64,000 bases of DNA from Candidatus Omnitrophica bacterium CG11_big_fil_rev_8_21_14_0_20_41_12 (GCA_002796135.1 PCWB01000027.1:1724-65723), one strand, 5' to 3'. Positions 24,412 to 56,087 are shown, counted from the stretch's first letter. Made by a program: numbers and translations. The notes: generated by a model not told the origin, from the letters alone.

Positions 24412-24894
24412 TTAATTAGTTTTTGGGGATTCAACGGTGAGTTTTTTATAAGCACCTTCTGTATCAGAATAAGCGTACATCCATACGCAACAATGTAGAA
24501 GCTTTCTTGCCTGAGAAAAAACCATTTTCCATTGGCCAAAGATCGGATTTTTAACTTTAAAATGTAATGCTTTTCCTAATCCTTCAAGCGGACCGGAAGC
24601 ACGCTTATAAGGATATAAATTACCTTTTGGATCTATCAATTTTACATCTACTAGCTCACAATCAACATACCAACCCACAAAATCATCTACATCATAGATT
24701 TCGAACGTTACAGTAACTATAGTGTTTGGTAATACGTCAAAAAACTCGGTAGCTCGGGTTTGGAACTCTTTATAATCTTTTGGAGGCTTATGTTCATTAT
24801 CTTCACCAAAAGAGACATAACATCCTGCCAGGATTAAAATTACTAATATAATAATTCCTTGTTTAATCATAAACTTTTGCTTTCTCTTTTCCAT
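24412..24894 (-). CDS. Hypothetical exported or lipoprotein-like protein, possible PPC-like beta-sandwich
   Basis: Basic N-terminus, hydrophobic stretch and LAGC; LIDPKG...NPIFGQW pattern; AT-rich; AGGAAGAGGG upstream. Confidence 0.6.
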   Translation of the reverse strand: MEKRKQKFMIKQGIIILVILILAGCYVSFGEDNEHKPPKDYKEFQTRATEFFDVLPNTIVTVTFEIYDVDDFVGWYVDCELVDVKLIDPKGNLYPYKRASGPLEGLGKALHFKVKNPIFGQWKMVFSQARKLLHCCVWMYAYSDTEGAYKKLTVESPKTN

Positions 24895-25000
24895 CCCTCT
24901 TCCTATTTTTTATTTCCTTTCCACTGCTTTCAGTACTATAAAAATACGTTGCTAATTTATATTACTATACCACAAATCCTAAGATTTTAAAAAATTAATA

Positions 25001-25162
25001 GCGTCTGGCTGGGCTGTGTTTTCGAGGGACGTGGAGGCAAGGAGCGGGCACGATTCACCGGCTATTGATACTCAATGAAAGCGACGCCAGCCGATCCGAG
25101 CGCAGTTACGGCACGCCGAGCCGTAACAAGCGTTCCCGAGAAAACACAGACAAAACAGATGC
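25001..25162. other. ~160-nt GC-rich folded element (ncRNA or MITE-like palindromic element)
   Basis: Terminal stems GCGTCTG/CAGATGC, CTGTGTTTTC/GAAAACACAG and GGGACG/CGTTCCC; internal GTTACGGC/GCCGTAAC hairpin; ~58% GC by manual count. Confidence 0.6.
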
Positions 25163-25164
25163 GT

Positions 25165-25208
25165 ACACCCGGTGCTTAATGGTATTGCGCCGGTGTTCCG
25201 CAGGTGCG
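25165..25208. repeat. Two-hairpin structured repeat, copy A
   Basis: ACACC-C-GGTGC-tta-atgg-tatt-GCGCC-GGTGT-tc-CGC-aggt-GCG, directly after the ftsA stop. Confidence 0.7.
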
Positions 25209-25212
25209 TAAA

Positions 25213-26466
25213 TTAAAAATATTCCTGATAAACTTCTTTGCAGCGGTTAATTACTTTGAAAAGCAGGTTCTTGGCGGGCTTTACTATTGCAAGATTTCCT
25301 ATTGTTTTACCTTCCAGGTCTTCACAGATCATTCCCAGACAGGTCAGATAAGTCAAATATTTCTGTCCGGATAGATCACTATTCTCTTTGGCTAACGCTG
25401 CAATCTCCGGATTATGGATCCTGCCGATACTTACGGGAATGCCCGTCACAGTCTCCATCATCTCAATAAATCCGTCAGTAAGCAGGGTTTTACCGACCAT
25501 AATAAAATTATCAACTTCATGCAATGCCACTTTTCTCTCCACAACCTCTTTAATCTGCGAACAGATCAGGCGTCCGAAGTTAGTGGCCATCTGCACTACT
25601 TCGCGCTGCCTGATCGGCTTATAAAATTCATCTTTCTTAACTAAAATTTCTTTATTTTCCGGAATACTGCTTGCATCCGCAATAATTCCATAGGAACGCT
25701 TGATATCTTCGGCCAGCTCAAAATTAATTTTCAATCCTTCGGAAAGCTGTTCGGTCATGCTGTTGCCGCCTAAGGGCAGGATCTGAATATCCTGCAGAAG
25801 TCCGTCTTTAAATATAAGCAACTCCGTAACATCGCTACCTACATCGCAAAATACGCTTAACCCTTTCTTTTCTTTACTACCCAGCACCGCCTTACTGGTA
25901 GCTAGCCCTGAAAAAGAAAGACTTCTGATTTCGCATCCGCATTGGCTTACAGCGCGGCTTAAACTTTGCAAAGAGGAAAGCCTAGCACAAACTAAATATA
26001 AATCTACCTCCAGCCTGTGGCTGTATAAACCGATCGGATTAATAACATTGCTTTTAGAATCTATAGAATAACTGGACGGAATCACATGAATTATTTCATC
26101 TTCTAAGCTTGAGCCCAGGATACGCGCCTGTTCATTAGCAGAGGCTATATCGGTTGAAGTAACTACTTTATTACCGCGCTCAGCAAGCGGAATAATCGCA
26201 TGGCTATGTTTAGTGGAGATATCTTTGCCGGAAAAATTAGTATGGATAAATTTTATCTTTAATCCGGATTTGGCCCGCAGGCTTTTGATGATCTTACCCA
26301 GACAAACAACCAGTTGCGTAGCGTCGACGATAACTCCTTCTTTTACTCCGCTAGAAGGCAGGCAATCAAAAAAGATATCCTCAATACGATTCTTCTTTAT
26401 TTTTGCCAATGAAGCAGAAATTTTATTTGAACCTATGTCAATTGCGCAGATATAATTATTTAGCAT
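25213..26466 (-). CDS. ftsA: Cell division protein FtsA (divergent)
   Basis: AIDIGSNKI, SSGVKEGVIVD, IIHVIP..YSID, NPIG, C-terminal amphipathic helix; follows ftsQ. Confidence 0.9.
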   Translation of the reverse strand: MLNNYICAIDIGSNKISASLAKIKKNRIEDIFFDCLPSSGVKEGVIVDATQLVVCLGKIIKSLRAKSGLKIKFIHTNFSGKDISTKHSHAIIPLAERGNKVVTSTDIASANEQARILGSSLEDEIIHVIPSSYSIDSKSNVINPIGLYSHRLEVDLYLVCARLSSLQSLSRAVSQCGCEIRSLSFSGLATSKAVLGSKEKKGLSVFCDVGSDVTELLIFKDGLLQDIQILPLGGNSMTEQLSEGLKINFELAEDIKRSYGIIADASSIPENKEILVKKDEFYKPIRQREVVQMATNFGRLICSQIKEVVERKVALHEVDNFIMVGKTLLTDGFIEMMETVTGIPVSIGRIHNPEIAALAKENSDLSGQKYLTYLTCLGMICEDLEGKTIGNLAIVKPAKNLLFKVINRCKEVYQEYF

Positions 26467-27244
26467 TATTTAGCTTAATTACCGCCTCCTTAAACCTTAA
26501 ATCAATATATTTAATATTTCCCCAATCCTTATGAGCCTGTATGACTAGTCCACCGAGAATCATCATCTTGCCTCTGATATTAGTCTCTCCGGTACGCACC
26601 TCGAACCCAGATCCCGGTAACGGAGCAGCTGGCTTTTTATAATCAACGATCAGCTTGGACAAAAGAACAAAAAAACCTGCGCTGGAAAGATCTCTCACAT
26701 CAACGCTTTTTAAAGTAAAATCACGAAATGATTTGTTGGCGTTAAATTCTTTTATAATACTTATGGCCAGATCAAGCTCCAGTCTCTTATATTTTGTCCC
26801 CGGCTTAGGAGCAAATATCTTTGTCTCTAAGCCATAGATTACCGGTAGCCCGGATTCCTCGTCAGTTGAATCCGAATAAAACAATACACCTTGCTCATCA
26901 ATTACAAAATTCCGATAGAATTTAACTAAGGCCAGCGGCTTGCGTTTTAAAAAATCAATGAATATACAATTGGGAAATACTCTGGTAAATCTTACTTTAC
27001 GGCAATCCGGGCACCCCGCAGCAACCTGGCGCGATTGGACGCCTAAATCTAAACTGAAAATATTCCTTCCCTTTAGATAATCAAATGACGCATCGGAATT
27101 TCTAACGATAACCTGCTTAACCGAAAAAAATTCCGAAGTCGTCAATACCTTCCAAATATATCCTATTAAAAAAGAGATAGCAAGTGAAATTATCGCCAGA
27201 GTAATAATAATTTTTACGGGTAGATTAAATCTTCTTTTTCTCAT
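26456..27244 (-). CDS. ftsQ: Cell division protein FtsQ/DivIB
   Basis: TM helix, POTRA-like region (FSVKQVIV...GRNIFSLDL...RVFPN), YIDLRF. Confidence 0.85.
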   Translation of the reverse strand: MRKRRFNLPVKIIITLAIISLAISFLIGYIWKVLTTSEFFSVKQVIVRNSDASFDYLKGRNIFSLDLGVQSRQVAAGCPDCRKVRFTRVFPNCIFIDFLKRKPLALVKFYRNFVIDEQGVLFYSDSTDEESGLPVIYGLETKIFAPKPGTKYKRLELDLAISIIKEFNANKSFRDFTLKSVDVRDLSSAGFFVLLSKLIVDYKKPAAPLPGSGFEVRTGETNIRGKMMILGGLVIQAHKDWGNIKYIDLRFKEAVIKLNNAK

Positions 27245-28169
27245 AAGCTAATTCCAATAATTTAATGCAAAGGTGGTTGAAATCTATGCCCGCAATCCTG
27301 GCGGCCTTAGGCAGAAGGCTGCTGGAGGTCATCCCTGGGATAGTATTAATCTCTAGAACATATGGACAATTATCTTTACTTAATATGATATCCGTACGCG
27401 AACAGCCAAAACAACCAAGAAGCCTGTGGGCTTCTCTAGCCGTCTGCTGAACTTTTCTAAAAATACTTTCCTCTAAATGGGCCGGAACAATATATTTGGT
27501 TAAAGCAGATTGATACTTTGCTTCAAAATCAAAAAACTTTCCTTCAGGCACGATTTCAATAACCGGCAAAGCCTCCTGCCCCAGGATCCCCACTGTAAGT
27601 TCCCGGCCGGATATAAACTCCTCAATTATTATACGTTCATCAAACTGAAAAGCAAGATCGATAGCCGCAAATATCTCTTCATTGCGCTCAATAAATGAAA
27701 TCCCGATACTTGAACCATGATTAGCCGGTTTGACTACTAAAGGCAGCCCTAGGTCATTTTTAAAAATTTTTGTTTTCTGATAATCCGTTTTATCGACAGC
27801 CCGAAATATAGGGACATCTAGTCCTCCGGCTTTTAATCTCTCCAGCGAGCCGATTTTATCCATTGCCAGCCGGCTGGCCGCAACCCCTGAAGCAGTATAG
27901 GGCAAATCCATCTTCTCCAGGATCTCCTGAATTACCCCATCCTCACCAAAGCGTCCGTGTAAAGCAATAAATGCTGCGTTTAAATTATTCTCTTTGAGCA
28001 GCTTGATATTCTCTTCCTGGTTATCCGTGGTTATTTCTATACCTACCGCCTCTACCCTTAAGCCTAATAACGCCGACAATACGGCTTGCCCGCTTTTCAA
28101 AGAGATCCCTCTCTCAGAAGAAGGACCTCCCATTAAAACTCCCACTCTACCAAAATCTTTTATTTCCAT
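27225..28169 (-). CDS. ddl: D-alanine--D-alanine ligase
   Basis: GGPSSER, LHGRFGEDG, VKP..GSSIG, FDFEAKY, EINTIPGMT. Confidence 0.96.
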   Translation of the reverse strand: MEIKDFGRVGVLMGGPSSERGISLKSGQAVLSALLGLRVEAVGIEITTDNQEENIKLLKENNLNAAFIALHGRFGEDGVIQEILEKMDLPYTASGVAASRLAMDKIGSLERLKAGGLDVPIFRAVDKTDYQKTKIFKNDLGLPLVVKPANHGSSIGISFIERNEEIFAAIDLAFQFDERIIIEEFISGRELTVGILGQEALPVIEIVPEGKFFDFEAKYQSALTKYIVPAHLEESIFRKVQQTAREAHRLLGCFGCSRTDIILSKDNCPYVLEINTIPGMTSSSLLPKAARIAGIDFNHLCIKLLELAYEKKKI

Positions 28170-29041
28170 ATTTTTATCTCAGGCTTAAGCTTAACTTTAA
28201 ACCTTGATTTAATTTTTTTCTGAATTAAATCCATAAGCGCTAAAACATCGCCGGATTTTGCTTGATGCGAATTTAAAATAAAATTAGCATGTGTCCTGGA
28301 AACCGATGCACCGCCTCTGGCTTTGCCCTTCAGTCCGCATTTATCAATCAGAGCCCCTGCCAAATTACGTCCCGGATTTTTAAAAATACATCCTGCGTTA
28401 GGAAGGCGGTGATCTTGAGTTTTGCTGCGTTTTAAAAGATAATCTTTTATCTTTTGCACAATCGAATTTCTATCTGCAGCTTGCAGCCTAAGTGTAGCGG
28501 AAATAATAACACACTTATCTAAATTGGATTTACGATAAGCAAATTTTAATTCTTTATAATTGATTATTCTGGGGATCCCGCGATAATCTAAAACATCTAC
28601 CTGCTTAACCAGCTTTCCGATCGATCTATCCCAGGCTCCGGCATTTCCCGCCAGTGCTCCTCCTAATGTGCCGGGAATCCCGGCGAGAAACTCTAATCCG
28701 GTTAATCCTTTTTTTTGAGCAAATAAGATCAGCTGGCTTAATTTTGAAGCACCTCCCGCTATTATACAAGTGCCTTGAGCGTGATTAGCCCTAAACACCT
28801 TGGCCGTTAATCTGATTACCAGCCCGTCTACTCCTGAATCGCTGACCAATACATTGCTCCCTGAGCCTAAAATAAAAACCTTGATACCGCTACGCCAAGC
28901 TAAAGCTAAGACCCGCTGTAAACTTTTAATATCCGCAGGCTCAAAGAAAAATTTTGCCGGCCCCCCGATCTTAAAGCTCGTAAGGTTGGCTAACTTAGTT
29001 TTAGTTTTTATTTTTTTACTTAAGTTTTTGGGCCAAAGCAT
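28160..29041 (-). CDS. murB: UDP-N-acetylenolpyruvoylglucosamine reductase
   Basis: FKIGGPA, GSGSNVL, GIPGTLGG...NAGA, AGCIFKNP, HANF. Confidence 0.95.
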   Translation of the reverse strand: MLWPKNLSKKIKTKTKLANLTSFKIGGPAKFFFEPADIKSLQRVLALAWRSGIKVFILGSGSNVLVSDSGVDGLVIRLTAKVFRANHAQGTCIIAGGASKLSQLILFAQKKGLTGLEFLAGIPGTLGGALAGNAGAWDRSIGKLVKQVDVLDYRGIPRIINYKELKFAYRKSNLDKCVIISATLRLQAADRNSIVQKIKDYLLKRSKTQDHRLPNAGCIFKNPGRNLAGALIDKCGLKGKARGGASVSRTHANFILNSHQAKSGDVLALMDLIQKKIKSRFKVKLKPEIKIWK

Positions 29042-30374
29042 CGCTTACCTTTACAATATCCCCTGCTCCCAGGGTAATCACCAGATCATCCTTGAGAATA
29101 ATACTTAAGAGATGCTCAAGAATATCCTCTTTAGGCAAATATAATACCGGTTTATTTTTTGTATATTCCTGTATTTTTTTCAATAAACTCTGCGCGCACA
29201 CCCCGTCTATCGGCTTTTCGCCTGCCGCATAAATATCCGTAATAATCAGATAATCCGCCAGGTCAAAAGATTTAGTAAATTCCTCTAAGAGTAACTGGGT
29301 GCGGCTATAACGATGCGGCTGAAAAACAACGATTTTACGTCCGGCATTCAAATTAGTAATCGCTTCAAGAGTAGCTTTGATCTCAGAAGGATGATGAGCA
29401 TAATCATCAATGATCAAATATTTATCATCTTTAAATTTTGTTTCTAATCTACGCCCGGCTCCCCTATACCCTGCTAAGGCCCTGCGTATACATTCTAAAT
29501 CAATACCCAGCTCTTCCCCCAGTCCGATTACCGCCAAAGCATTGGAAATATTATGCCTGCCTCCTAGAGCCAGATGAAAATGCCCGAGTAATTTATTTTT
29601 AAAGTAGCAATCAAAATTAGAGGATAAACCGGTAAATGAAATATTCTTAGCCTGGATATCAGCATTATCATTGAGGCCGAAAAATAAATGTTTTCCTTGA
29701 TAAGAGTTGGCCATTTTAAAAAGATGAGGATCATCTGAACAAGCTATAACAGTGCCTCCTTCTTTAGTGCGCCTGACAAAAGAATCAAATGCCGCTAATT
29801 CCCGCTTGAAATCATGATAATAATCTAAATGCTCCCGGTCAATATTAGTGATAATTGAATACTTGGGGCTATAGTTTAAAAATGACCCATCAGATTCATC
29901 GGCCTCGGCAACAAAAAATTCCCCGCTGCCTAAGCAGGCGTTGGCATTGATATTCTTAAGTATTCCGCCGATAACTACTGTAGGATTTAGCCCTGCCTCA
30001 AGCAACATGCAAGAAACCAGTGAAGTAGTCGTAGTTTTACCGTGGCTGCCGGCAATGGTTATCGCTGTCTTCTCCTGCATCAAGAGAGCCAAGACTTCTG
30101 CCCTTTTAATTAAGGGTAGGCCTAAAATTTGCGCTTGGCGCAATTCACAATTGTCTTTGTCTATTGCCGATGAATAAACTACTGCATCCTGGCCGTCTAT
30201 ATTCTGCGCATTGTGCCCGATGCATATCTTTGCTCCCAGACTTTTAAGTTCTTCGGTAATCTGATTACCCTTAAGATCCGAGCCGCTCACTTTAGAGCCG
30301 CCCTTAAGCAGTAGATGAGCAATCCCGCTCATCCCTATTCCGCCAATACCGATAAAATGATAATATTTTTTCAT
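29016..30374 (-). CDS. murC: UDP-N-acetylmuramate--L-alanine ligase
   Basis: HFIGIGGIGMSG, GSHGKTTT, EADESD, DDYAHHP, FQPHRYSR. Start at ATG 30374 overlaps the upstream stop. Confidence 0.96.
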   Translation of the reverse strand: MKKYYHFIGIGGIGMSGIAHLLLKGGSKVSGSDLKGNQITEELKSLGAKICIGHNAQNIDGQDAVVYSSAIDKDNCELRQAQILGLPLIKRAEVLALLMQEKTAITIAGSHGKTTTTSLVSCMLLEAGLNPTVVIGGILKNINANACLGSGEFFVAEADESDGSFLNYSPKYSIITNIDREHLDYYHDFKRELAAFDSFVRRTKEGGTVIACSDDPHLFKMANSYQGKHLFFGLNDNADIQAKNISFTGLSSNFDCYFKNKLLGHFHLALGGRHNISNALAVIGLGEELGIDLECIRRALAGYRGAGRRLETKFKDDKYLIIDDYAHHPSEIKATLEAITNLNAGRKIVVFQPHRYSRTQLLLEEFTKSFDLADYLIITDIYAAGEKPIDGVCAQSLLKKIQEYTKNKPVLYLPKEDILEHLLSIILKDDLVITLGAGDIVKVSDALAQKLK

Positions 30375-31141
30375 CTTAAGATATAAGCCTTCCAACCTTC
30401 TTCAAAATTAGCCATATTGGAAAAGGAATATGCCTTGGATAATGCCGCCGCAAGATTCCGGCTGTCCCGCAGGCTCTGGCAGAAAAATACAAACTTACCT
30501 CTGCCGAATTCCGAAATTAAATATTTTACCAAACTATATGCTTCTGCATAAAATAATGCTGCCCTGGCTTTATCCTCAGACTTTGATAATCCCAACCTGC
30601 TTAAATCACCCAGTGAAATAAAATTCCCGCTCCTTATTCCTTCGGCTAACTTTGCTTTAACCGCATAAATATTTTCCCCTTGATAACTTGCCACCCCCTC
30701 CTCAAGCCAGAGAGGCACAGCAGGATTATTAAAACCAACCATCTCTCTAAAAATTATATGCGCCAATTCATGAGGAAGAATATTATTTAAAAATCCCGGA
30801 GCAGTCACAAAGGTCTTGATCAATTTATTTGCTACGGCGGCCTGCCCGGCTGACCAATCAGGAGCATCGGTGTCTTTACGGTAATCCTGCTGAGTATCAA
30901 ATATATAAATTCTTGCCCTCCTGTCCCAAGTCCAAAAATTAAAACGGTTAAAACCTAACTCATTGGTAATATTACTATAACAGCTCTCTGCAGCCTGGGC
31001 TAACCGCTCAACTGTGCTCTGCGGCGCCTCTTTATAATAAATAAAAAAATGCGTAGATTTCAACAGCTGCCAATCCCCCTTAGCCGCAAAGGCAACGATG
31101 GGGAAAAATAAAAATAATAATAAAAATCTGAATCGGCACAT
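30371..31141 (-). CDS. Secreted zinc metallopeptidase (peptidase MA-like, gluzincin)
   Basis: Signal peptide, HELAH (HExxH), PLWLEEGVA third-ligand motif, FYAEAYSLVKYL. Confidence 0.8.
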   Translation of the reverse strand: MCRFRFLLLFLFFPIVAFAAKGDWQLLKSTHFFIYYKEAPQSTVERLAQAAESCYSNITNELGFNRFNFWTWDRRARIYIFDTQQDYRKDTDAPDWSAGQAAVANKLIKTFVTAPGFLNNILPHELAHIIFREMVGFNNPAVPLWLEEGVASYQGENIYAVKAKLAEGIRSGNFISLGDLSRLGLSKSEDKARAALFYAEAYSLVKYLISEFGRGKFVFFCQSLRDSRNLAAALSKAYSFSNMANFEEGWKAYILR

Positions 31142-50194: not shown

Positions 50195-50268
50195 TCGGGG
50201 CGGTGCGACTTGAACGCACGGCCTCTTGCTCCCGAAGCAAGCGCTCTACCAAACTGAGCCACGCCCCG
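50195..50268 (-). tRNA. tRNA-Pro (anticodon CGG), CCA not encoded
   Basis: Minus strand CGGGGCG...CTTGC-TT-CGG-GA-GCAAG...GTTCAAGTC...CGCCCCG-A cloverleaf. Confidence 0.96.
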
Positions 50269-55845: not shown

Positions 55846-55891
55846 ATCGTAATTTTAATCTTCTTCCATCTGGACTTTCTCATACGCTTTT

Positions 55892-55936
55892 ACACCCCGC
55901 GTTTATAAGATATTACGCGGGTGTTCGTTCGTACGA
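55892..55936. repeat. Two-hairpin structured repeat, copy B (inside the riboswitch)
   Basis: ACACC-C-CGCGT-tta-taaga-tatt-ACGCG-GGTGT-TCGT-tcgt-ACGA. Confidence 0.72.
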
Positions 55937-55983
55937 ACCATCGGCCCTGGAATCTCACCAGATCTGCCTAGCACATTGTTTAA

Positions 55984-56027
55984 GCACCCAGCGCTAAATT
56001 GCATTGCGCTGGTGCCTGCTCGTGCAG
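55984..56027. repeat. Two-hairpin structured repeat, copy C (inside the riboswitch)
   Basis: GCACC-C-AGCGC-taa-attg-catt-GCGCT-GGTGC-CTGC-tcgt-GCAG. Confidence 0.72.
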
Positions 56028-56087
56028 GGCTCGCGGGCTAAACCGCCGGTAAGGAATTTCACCTTGCCCTAAAGATTAATTGTTAGT

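Follow-up and report, generated by a model that had tools for sequence, protein, structure and literature searches.

The stretch of DNA analysed here (the window) is 64 kb long and comes from a Candidatus Omnitrophica genome of 1.22 Mb, in 57 contigs and 95.8% complete (G000). In the gap behind ftsA it contains a folded, GC-rich element of 164 nt, at positions 25000-25163. We found that this element is one copy of an undescribed interspersed repeat family of Omnitrophota, which extends across the phylum and conserves its structure. The family is probably non-autonomous mobile DNA of a REPIN-like type with an unusual conserved core, and an enzyme acting in trans would process it as a folded single strand.

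Fold and distribution of the family

A preliminary description made from the window sequence had placed the element at 25001-25162, as an island of ~58% GC in AT-rich flanks. GC contents in 100-nt windows agree with this. Windows starting at 25000, 25050 and 25100 have values of 0.59, 0.56 and 0.56, against 0.29 at 24850, 0.23 at 24900 and 0.38 at 25200, and the 200 nt preceding the element are 23-31% GC. The plus strand folds with a minimum free energy (MFE) of -63.5 kcal/mol, compared with -48.9 +/- 3.6 in 200 dinucleotide shuffles (z -4.1, 0/200 as good). The minus strand reaches -60.9 kcal/mol (z -3.35), also with 0/200 shuffles as good.

The rod helices, 6x6 internal loop, tandem G.A, GGGACG/CGTTCCC helix and 8-bp hairpin that had been drawn for the element are present in the sequence and in the MFE fold. 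Two core helices drawn with them, CGGCT/AGCCG and ATTGA/TCAAT, occur only in the MFE fold of the window copy. They have no family support. In the covariation-based helix P3, bases just 5' of GAGCGGGCA pair with bases just 3' of GAGCGA, and the variable P3a lies between.

The element has no match in Rfam 15 at gathering score; the whole window gave only an FMN riboswitch and a tRNA, both elsewhere. Between 24850 and 25300 at E<=10, the sole match was a meaningless one of 6 bits to a mouse long noncoding RNA model with a gathering score of 55. Neither threshold yielded a confident family match. This agrees with the preliminary description, in which the element was not recognised as a tRNA, signal recognition particle RNA, transfer-messenger RNA, RNase P RNA or known riboswitch, and the Rfam models searched included 6S RNA.

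The family fold was derived from two alignments. A1 holds 27 copies and was used to build covariance model R1; A3 holds 93 non-redundant copies aligned with MAFFT without structure. RNAalifold predicted 38 pairs on A1, 22 of them with compensatory double changes. These pairs are formed in 96.7% of cells in A1, compared with 85.2% in shuffles and 37-45% with slid partners. The larger alignment gave 95.0%, against 80.7% in shuffles (0/500 as high) and 40-46% with a slid partner. Covariation on homologues had been proposed as a check on the fold, and it was found: 30 of the 38 pairs in A3 have changed on both sides, in 413 cells versus 91 in shuffles.

The fold begins with P1, a rod of ~20 bp with small internal loops, in which all ten pairs of the main helix (10/10) have changed on both sides. 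A tandem G.A/A.G follows, then P2, which ends in a near-invariant U.G (89/93 copies), and then a three-way junction. The first junction arm consists of P3, an invariant internal loop (5' GAGCGGGCAYGG, 3' RGAGCGA) and P3a. P3 occurs in at least nine different perfectly compensated sequences, such as CAAAAAUUU/AAAUUUUUG, AAAAGCCGC/GCGGCUUUU and UUUUGGUC/GACCAAAA. Within the internal loop are two G-C pairs and a further tandem G.A that could form. P3a can be as short as a tetraloop hairpin or exceed 40 nt. The second arm is P4, with both-side changes in 7/9 pairs; its stem covaries freely and its 7-nt loop is conserved. Columns G45, C46, G47, G48, C50, A51 and G53 on the 5' side, and A81, G82 and G84 on the 3' side, are invariant over the 93 copies, and GAGCG is near-invariant. 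The core 3' strand is retained throughout the phylum. The termini read AGCGG...GACGC.

Searches with R1 identified six full-length copies in G000, all intergenic. BLAST recovered four copies at 71-79% identity and one partial copy. Further genomic copies and empty sites, for which BLASTN had been suggested at the outset, were both found, the latter as empty orthologous gaps in relatives. Within the genus, the model detected the element in 42 of 48 genomes, with 0-24 copies each, and no copy in G008, G061 and G021, each 94-95% complete. In a sample of the phylum it is carried, mostly as full-length matches, by 52 of 151 genomes, which represent 41 of 112 genera and belong to several classes.

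The exact core pattern has 42 loci in a collection of species-representative genomes. By title, 31 belong to Candidatus Omnitrophota/Omnitrophica, 10 to 'uncultured Planctomycetales' bins and 1 to a 'bacterium'. The same pattern occurs at 118 or more loci in metagenome contigs, and 80 of these loci contain 86 model matches. Viral contigs gave 4 matches to a looser form of the core pattern, 0 of which were confirmed by the model. Copies are frequently located at contig ends. No description of the family was found in the main texts of the Omnitrophota literature on repeats, on MITE/REPIN-type elements (MITE, miniature inverted-repeat transposable element) or on noncoding RNA, nor in parts of PMC10066038 or of a 2026 Omnitrophota genome preprint.

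Turnover at genomic sites and mode of propagation

Almost all copies (98 of 99 non-redundant copies) are intergenic, often 4-60 nt from a gene end. Unidirectional gene pairs hold 49 copies, 19 in the orientation of the genes and 30 antisense (p 0.15), convergent pairs hold 10 and divergent pairs 6. The 86 proteins nearest to 51 copies are unrelated housekeeping proteins, including CysS, Tmk, heptosyltransferases, GroEL, LigA, LeuS and TopA. No transposase, reverse transcriptase, TnpB or IscB is found among these 86, and one XerC-like recombinase lies beside topA.

Some gaps are recurrent hotspots, and orthologous sites differ between relatives. The gap between ftsA and yggS contains only a promoter region of ~60 nt in G015, G046 and G008. 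Nothing but a small hairpin lies there in G023, G020 and G024, and an unrelated membrane ORF (open reading frame) in G017. The element occupies the gap in the window orientation in G004 and, preceded by other repeats, in reverse in G053 and G055. The G000 and G004 copies at this gap have many compensated differences though their FtsA proteins are 90% identical, which suggests separate insertion or replacement events. The gap 3' of an amidohydrolase gene has five states in five genomes: subfamily 2, a relic 3' end, family A (a different repeat, see below), a 27-nt mini copy and subfamily 1. Elsewhere, the boundaries of a 161-nt copy coincide with those of a 65-nt mini copy at the same site. The minis retain the termini, the rod and the tandem G.A, and the core is absent.

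Several copies in G003 share a 43-nt perfect hairpin within the invariant core, two of them as 208-nt matches of identical score. These hairpin-bearing copies indicate that the variant has multiplied as a unit. As a separate observation, the hairpin (L136, L137, L138) interrupts the invariant GGAGCGGGC|AC and has CGGGC repeated on both sides; it may be another tiny insertion element.

At a given intergenic site, related genomes may have a copy, lack it, or carry it inverted, exchanged for another or shortened, which points to mobile-type DNA. The element had initially been described as a novel noncoding RNA or a non-autonomous palindromic mobile element. Its multicopy state and polymorphism between relatives favor the latter, and the former is weakened.

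Helix wobbles bear on the choice between RNA and DNA. Functional-RNA helices tolerate G-U far more than A-C. With the invariant U.G left out, the family has 58 G-U cells and 58 A-C cells over 37 pairs in 93 copies; counted per pair, G-U exceeds A-C in 11 and A-C exceeds G-U in 15. This equality favors selection acting on DNA over selection on an RNA. Tandem G.A mismatches are stable in DNA hairpins too, so the asymmetric motifs alone do not demand RNA. The plus strand had been preferred initially because of a G-U pair and the tandem G.A. The wobble counts remove the first argument, and what still speaks for this strand is limited to the two tandem G.A motifs and the asymmetric core.

The junctions were compared in 97 copies. 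No target-site duplication was detected at any offset, the best 2-, 3- and 4-nt flank repeats occurring in 18, 7 and 1 copies. This absence argues against a MITE moved by DDE cut-and-paste and is compatible with site-specific recombinases or with enzymes whose substrate is a folded single strand. The 5' flanks have T at -1 in 73% of copies and T at -4 in 58%. Flanking TA/TTAA, promising by eye, is better explained by AT-rich context together with palindromic ends.

Combined with the lack of target-site duplication, the equal wobble counts point to a hairpin-recognising DNA mechanism, not to a DDE MITE or RNA selection. We propose that the enzyme would be of the HUH/tyrosine-transposase or recombinase type and supplied in trans. 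Rod and termini may carry what propagation needs, since full-copy sites are also taken by derivatives (~65 nt and 27 nt) reduced to the termini, the rod and the tandem G.A. The strand-asymmetric core and the tandem G.A could mark one strand as the folded substrate.

Candidate partner enzymes were searched for in the genus. Y1_Tnp (PF01797) is above its cut-off in 38 of 41 genomes, with two genes in G000. The best NCBIfam match of both proteins is NF047646, REP-associated tyrosine transposase (RAYT; REP, repetitive extragenic palindrome), at 57.8 and 78.8 bits; both scores are below the curated cut-off of 80, and the RAYT name is not secured. RAYT-like Y1 transposases are candidates only for the role of partner. 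The TnpB zinc ribbon is above cut-off in 1 of 41 genomes. Reverse transcriptase is present in 10 of 48 genomes and IS110-type transposase in 7 of 48, and no copy of the element lies beside four IS110 loci. The model found no copy in 20 (12 + 8) loci around Y1, TnpB-like, reverse transcriptase and IS110 genes. In G000, DDE_3 and rve have no match and DDE_Tnp_1 has a single match with 7 stops, other DDE families not having been searched. Apart from these searches, G002 of the same genus (2.4 Mb, 6% contamination) contains eleven TnpB-type ORFs on two or three contigs, with none elsewhere in the genus. This cluster may be contamination or a recent invasion.

A number of observations weigh against mobile DNA served by an enzyme in trans. 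No enzyme was linked to the element in any test. Both Y1 genes of G000 are flanked by multicopy motifs of their own and not by the element, and no copy occurs within 1.5 kb of 6 further Y1 loci or of the examined reverse transcriptase and IS110 loci. Genomes G004, G041 and G054 carry 6-9 copies and have no Y1 match, and G008 has Y1 genes and no copy; all four are incomplete metagenome-assembled genomes (MAGs). An identity of only 71-79% within G000 implies that there has been no recent burst in that genome, and persistence across the phylum is long for a purely selfish element. We did not find a clean recent pair of filled and empty sites with exact junctions: the closest pairs have flanks only 81-87% identical (81-85% in the best of them), too divergent for the junctions to be placed. 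Conservation in the family is highest in the interior core and not at the termini, a pattern of functional RNA that is unusual for a MITE or REPIN. The tandem G.A motifs, invariant U.G and conserved hairpin loop suit RNA and single-stranded DNA equally.

These last features also enter the leading alternative, that the copies are multicopy genes for a trans-acting structured noncoding RNA. Its core would bind a protein or catalyse a reaction, and dispersal would be secondary, through recombination or hitch-hiking with neighboring repeats. Invariant junction and loop nucleotides amid covarying helices, from genus to phylum, are expected of such an RNA, as are the strand-asymmetric motifs (two tandem G.A and the invariant U.G), and P3a resembles a variable expansion segment of the kind found in many RNAs. 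The small RNA ssr9 of ISPpu9 provides a precedent for a small-RNA gene that moves as a selfish module (described in part of PMC12288879). We nevertheless consider this explanation unlikely. G-U does not exceed A-C, orientation is random relative to transcription, copy numbers span 0-24 and the search came up empty in three genomes of 94-95% completeness, and minis without the core persist at the same sites. Upstream of the window copy the plus strand has no sigma-70-like promoter site, and the 5' flanks of the family share only the T at -1.

Less likely still is a REP-like cis element domesticated by the host, in which the GC-rich rod would serve, whatever its orientation, as a stabiliser of mRNA 3' ends, a terminator or a site for a nucleoid protein, selected between genes of an AT-rich genome. 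The preference for unidirectional (49) and convergent (10) over divergent (6) gaps, often 4-60 nt from a gene end, matches the placement of REPs as given in part of PMC3733652. The rod is the same on both strands, which fits the equality of G-U and A-C, and occupied sites persist across genomes. This proposal leaves the strand-asymmetric invariant three-way-junction core unexplained. Moreover, close relatives lack the element in orthologous gaps and show no visible replacement for it, some genomes have zero copies, and the only terminator-like site found in the window belongs to the neighboring ~45-nt repeat.

A locus-specific leader or antisense RNA, either a riboswitch for the lipoprotein-like gene next to the window copy or an antisense regulator of ftsA, is highly improbable: the minus strand does lie 106 nt upstream of the 160-aa ORF, and 4/6 G000 copies have a small ORF without a Pfam family starting 78-165 nt from their 5' end on the opposite strand, but these ORFs are mutually unrelated, the 99 copies lie beside unrelated housekeeping genes in all four arrangements, and the copy in the ftsA gap is reversed in G053 and G055 and missing from G015, G046 and G008.

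Neighboring genes and repeats

The features of the window copy and its surroundings are collected in Table 1. In the window, the element lies on the strand opposite to its flanking genes. The dcw cluster spans 25213-30395, with FtsA and FtsQ kept, and yggS, proC, a phosphorylase gene and ileS follow beyond the 160-aa ORF.

Table 1. Coordinates of the window element, its parts and nearby or related features (window positions unless a contig of G000 is named).
Feature	Position	Strand	Basis or remark
Whole element, ~165-nt rod-plus-three-way-junction repeat copy	25000..25163	+	Covariance model R1, 154 bits, model positions 1-165; = G000:C34:26723-26886
P1 rod, 5' arm: terminal 7-bp helix, internal loop, 10-bp helix	25001..25023	+	MFE fold; family alignment
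Terminal 7-bp helix GCGTCTG/CAGATGC	25001-25007 / 25156-25162	+	MFE fold
6x6 internal loop between terminal helix and 10-bp helix		+	Seen in sequence
Perfect 10-bp helix CTGTGTTTTC/GAAAACACAG	25014-25023 / 25140-25149	+	MFE fold
Tandem G.A/A.G between P1 and P2	25024-25025 / 25138-25139	+	Family-conserved; retained in ~65-nt minis
P2 GGGACGT/GCG(T)TCCC, bulged T, closing near-invariant U.G	25026-25032 / 25130-25137	+	Alignment
P3 5' strand and invariant core GGAGCGGGCACG	25036..25052	+	Invariant columns; covarying P3 variants
P3a hairpin, variable in length and sequence	25053..25077	+	4/4 pairs changed on both sides
Core 3' strand (A)AGCGA, P3 3' strand CGCCAGCCG, junction ATCCGAGCGCA	25078..25104	+	Invariant A81 G82 G84
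P4 hairpin, conserved 7-nt loop (consensus ACGCUGG, ACGCCGA in window copy)	25105..25127	+	Alignment
8-bp hairpin GTTACGGC/GCCGTAAC	25106-25127	+	MFE fold
P1 rod, 3' arm	25140..25162	+	MFE fold; family alignment
~45-nt two-hairpin repeat abutting the 3' end of the element	25165..25208	+	9 copies in G000
ftsA, last gene of dcw cluster murC-murB-ddl-ftsQ-ftsA	25213..26466	-	Pfam FtsA and SHS2_FTSA; stop codon 50 nt from element
160-aa lipoprotein-like ORF	24412..24894	-	No Pfam family; missing at the site in relatives read
Promoter-like site for 160-aa ORF	24991-24964	-	
RAYT-like Y1 gene in G000	contig 24: 33293-33925	-	Own motifs recur about 13-24 times in genome
RAYT-like Y1 gene in G000	contig 18: 13274-13771	+	Own motifs recur about 13-24 times in genome

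The preliminary description had noted that the element occupies the usual position of ftsZ. A link to the dcw cluster or to ftsZ is not supported. PF00091 (FtsZ/tubulin) has no match in G000 or in the 151 Omnitrophota genomes, 147 of which are at least 90% complete, and a control search was positive in 13 of 14 reference genomes. FtsZ_C has no match in five highly contiguous genomes. In the genus, ftsA is directly followed by yggS and the gap is empty in several congeners, and family members lie in either orientation beside unrelated genes. Previous work reported FtsZ in only one of three 'Omnitrophica' (part of PMC5147048) and describes dcw genes as highly conserved in the phylum (part of PMC12283558). 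The position of the element is a coincidence and not a replacement of ftsZ; the gap is an insertion hotspot in the genus. There is no demonstrable tie of the window copy to ftsA or to the lipoprotein gene.

Four small ORFs without a Pfam family are found near G000 copies, for example at window 24412-24894 (-) and contig 41: 20957-21361 (-), one of them with the lipoprotein signal LILAGC. Neither the element nor these small ORFs occur in the corresponding gaps of relatives, a pattern suggesting that such gaps also collect accessory genes. A cassette of element plus small ORF was considered and rejected, the four ORFs being unrelated to each other. Two further candidates failed. The stretch after the 160-aa ORF is not a relic of the element (local score 14, null mean 14.6). 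Peptide coding is not supported either: antisense ORFs of 75-77 aa span 3/6 G000 copies, but indels of 1-2 nt leave no frame conserved. Elsewhere in the window, the FMN riboswitch (90 bits) lies at 55854-56080 (-) and the tRNA at 50195-50268 (-).

Other repeats adjoin the family. Of 51 copies, 17 abut on their 5' side a rod-like repeat of family A (~190 nt) or family B (~215 nt), in fixed relative orientation. Families A and B are GC-rich with long complementary ends, often located 10-25 nt upstream of the 5' end of the element; examples are L080:1300-1490 (G000 contig 40), L087, and L089 and L093 in the ftsA gap of G053 and G055. In the ~45-nt repeat the first hairpin is conserved (CACCCGGCGC..GCGCCGGTG) and the second covaries, and several of its copies lie directly before ribosome-binding sites or a tRNA. 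A stretch of 46 nt at L084:747-792 (G000 contig 47: 1378-1423) recurs at several positions in G017 and G053 with 96-100% identity, against ~80% for the surrounding genes.

Related systems and implications

The closest known systems are REP, REPIN and BIME (bacterial interspersed mosaic element) sequences with RAYT, a comparison class treated in parts of PMC3116915 and PMC3337134. A REP is a palindrome of 20-40 bp or an inverted doublet of such palindromes with a GTAG or CGTC tag, extragenic and mainly between unidirectional or convergent genes (part of PMC3733652). Like REP/REPIN, the element is noncoding, multicopy and extragenic, and lies mostly in unidirectional or convergent gaps (49 + 10 versus 6 divergent). 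It has a long hairpin held by compensatory change, forms mosaics with other repeats, lacks an adjoining transposase and persists for long in its lineage, and its host genomes contain RAYT-like Y1 genes. Unlike REP/REPIN, it is a 164-nt three-way junction with an invariant asymmetric core rather than a 20-40-bp palindrome or doublet, and the RAYT-like genes of G000 are flanked by other motifs. It has no GTAG tag; only about half of the copies have CGTC, read from the complement of the commonest 3' terminus.

MITE-like repeats include Correia/CREE of Neisseria, ERIC/IRU of enterobacteria and RUP/BOX of pneumococci. The element shares with Correia, ERIC and RUP/BOX a size of 100-170 bp and terminal inverted repeats that form a rod, kept across the family. 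As in MITEs, copies are intergenic, occur in either orientation and vary in number between relatives. In contrast to MITEs, there is no target-site duplication, no parent insertion sequence was found to share its ends, conservation is higher in the interior than at the termini and the distribution is phylum-wide.

In Pseudomonas putida, the ssr9 small-RNA module is mobilised by the IS110-family transposase of ISPpu9 (part of PMC12288879). Both ssr9 and the element are structured noncoding modules with stand-alone copies; ssr9 depends on a transposase supplied in trans and inserts at intergenic sites rich in repeats, according to the same part of that source. The two differ in that IS110-type transposases are confined to the 7 of 48 genus genomes mentioned above, with no copy beside the four IS110 loci, and in that the element is known from sequence alone.

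Integron attC sites and the ends of IS200/IS605 are single-stranded DNA substrates recognised by their structure. The element resembles them in the priority of helix structure over sequence, a strand-marking asymmetry and the lack of a junction duplication; small accessory ORFs beside several copies are a further similarity. Unlike attC sites, copies lie singly in gaps of the core genome without cassette arrays, and no R-box GTTRRRY ends were seen in the alignments, intI not having been searched. Unlike in IS200/IS605, the ends pair together without separate subterminal hairpins, and there is no fixed 5' target of 4-5 nt.

HEARO/IscB and TnpB omega RNAs are structured RNAs in Rfam that are associated with mobile elements. 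They share with the element a multicopy, lineage-restricted and elaborately folded nature and suspected mobility. The element differs from them in having no Rfam 15 match and no IscB or TnpB beside any copy.

A more far-reaching proposal, which we regard as doubtful, is that the core is an active nucleic-acid device, either a new ribozyme or a structure-specific recognition module for a new class of enzyme. The family would then be the first member of a new type of mobile element that depends on structure, and not a variant of REP or MITE. If this is true, the active core would allow an element of 165 nt that encodes no protein to multiply in genome after genome of an entire phylum of ultra-small bacteria.

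The ultra-small bacteria of the Omnitrophota are abundant and uncultured, and their genomes measure 1-2 Mb. Several families of elaborate folded repeats of 160-215 nt are unexpected in such streamlined genomes. Copies of the family interrupt MAG assemblies and may be mistaken for riboswitches or small RNAs. The family joins population behavior of the REPIN/MITE type with conservation of the functional-RNA type, its helices covarying throughout a phylum around a junction core that does not change. Identifying its recogniser would inform structure-guided DNA mobility and provide annotation with a missing RNA or repeat family.

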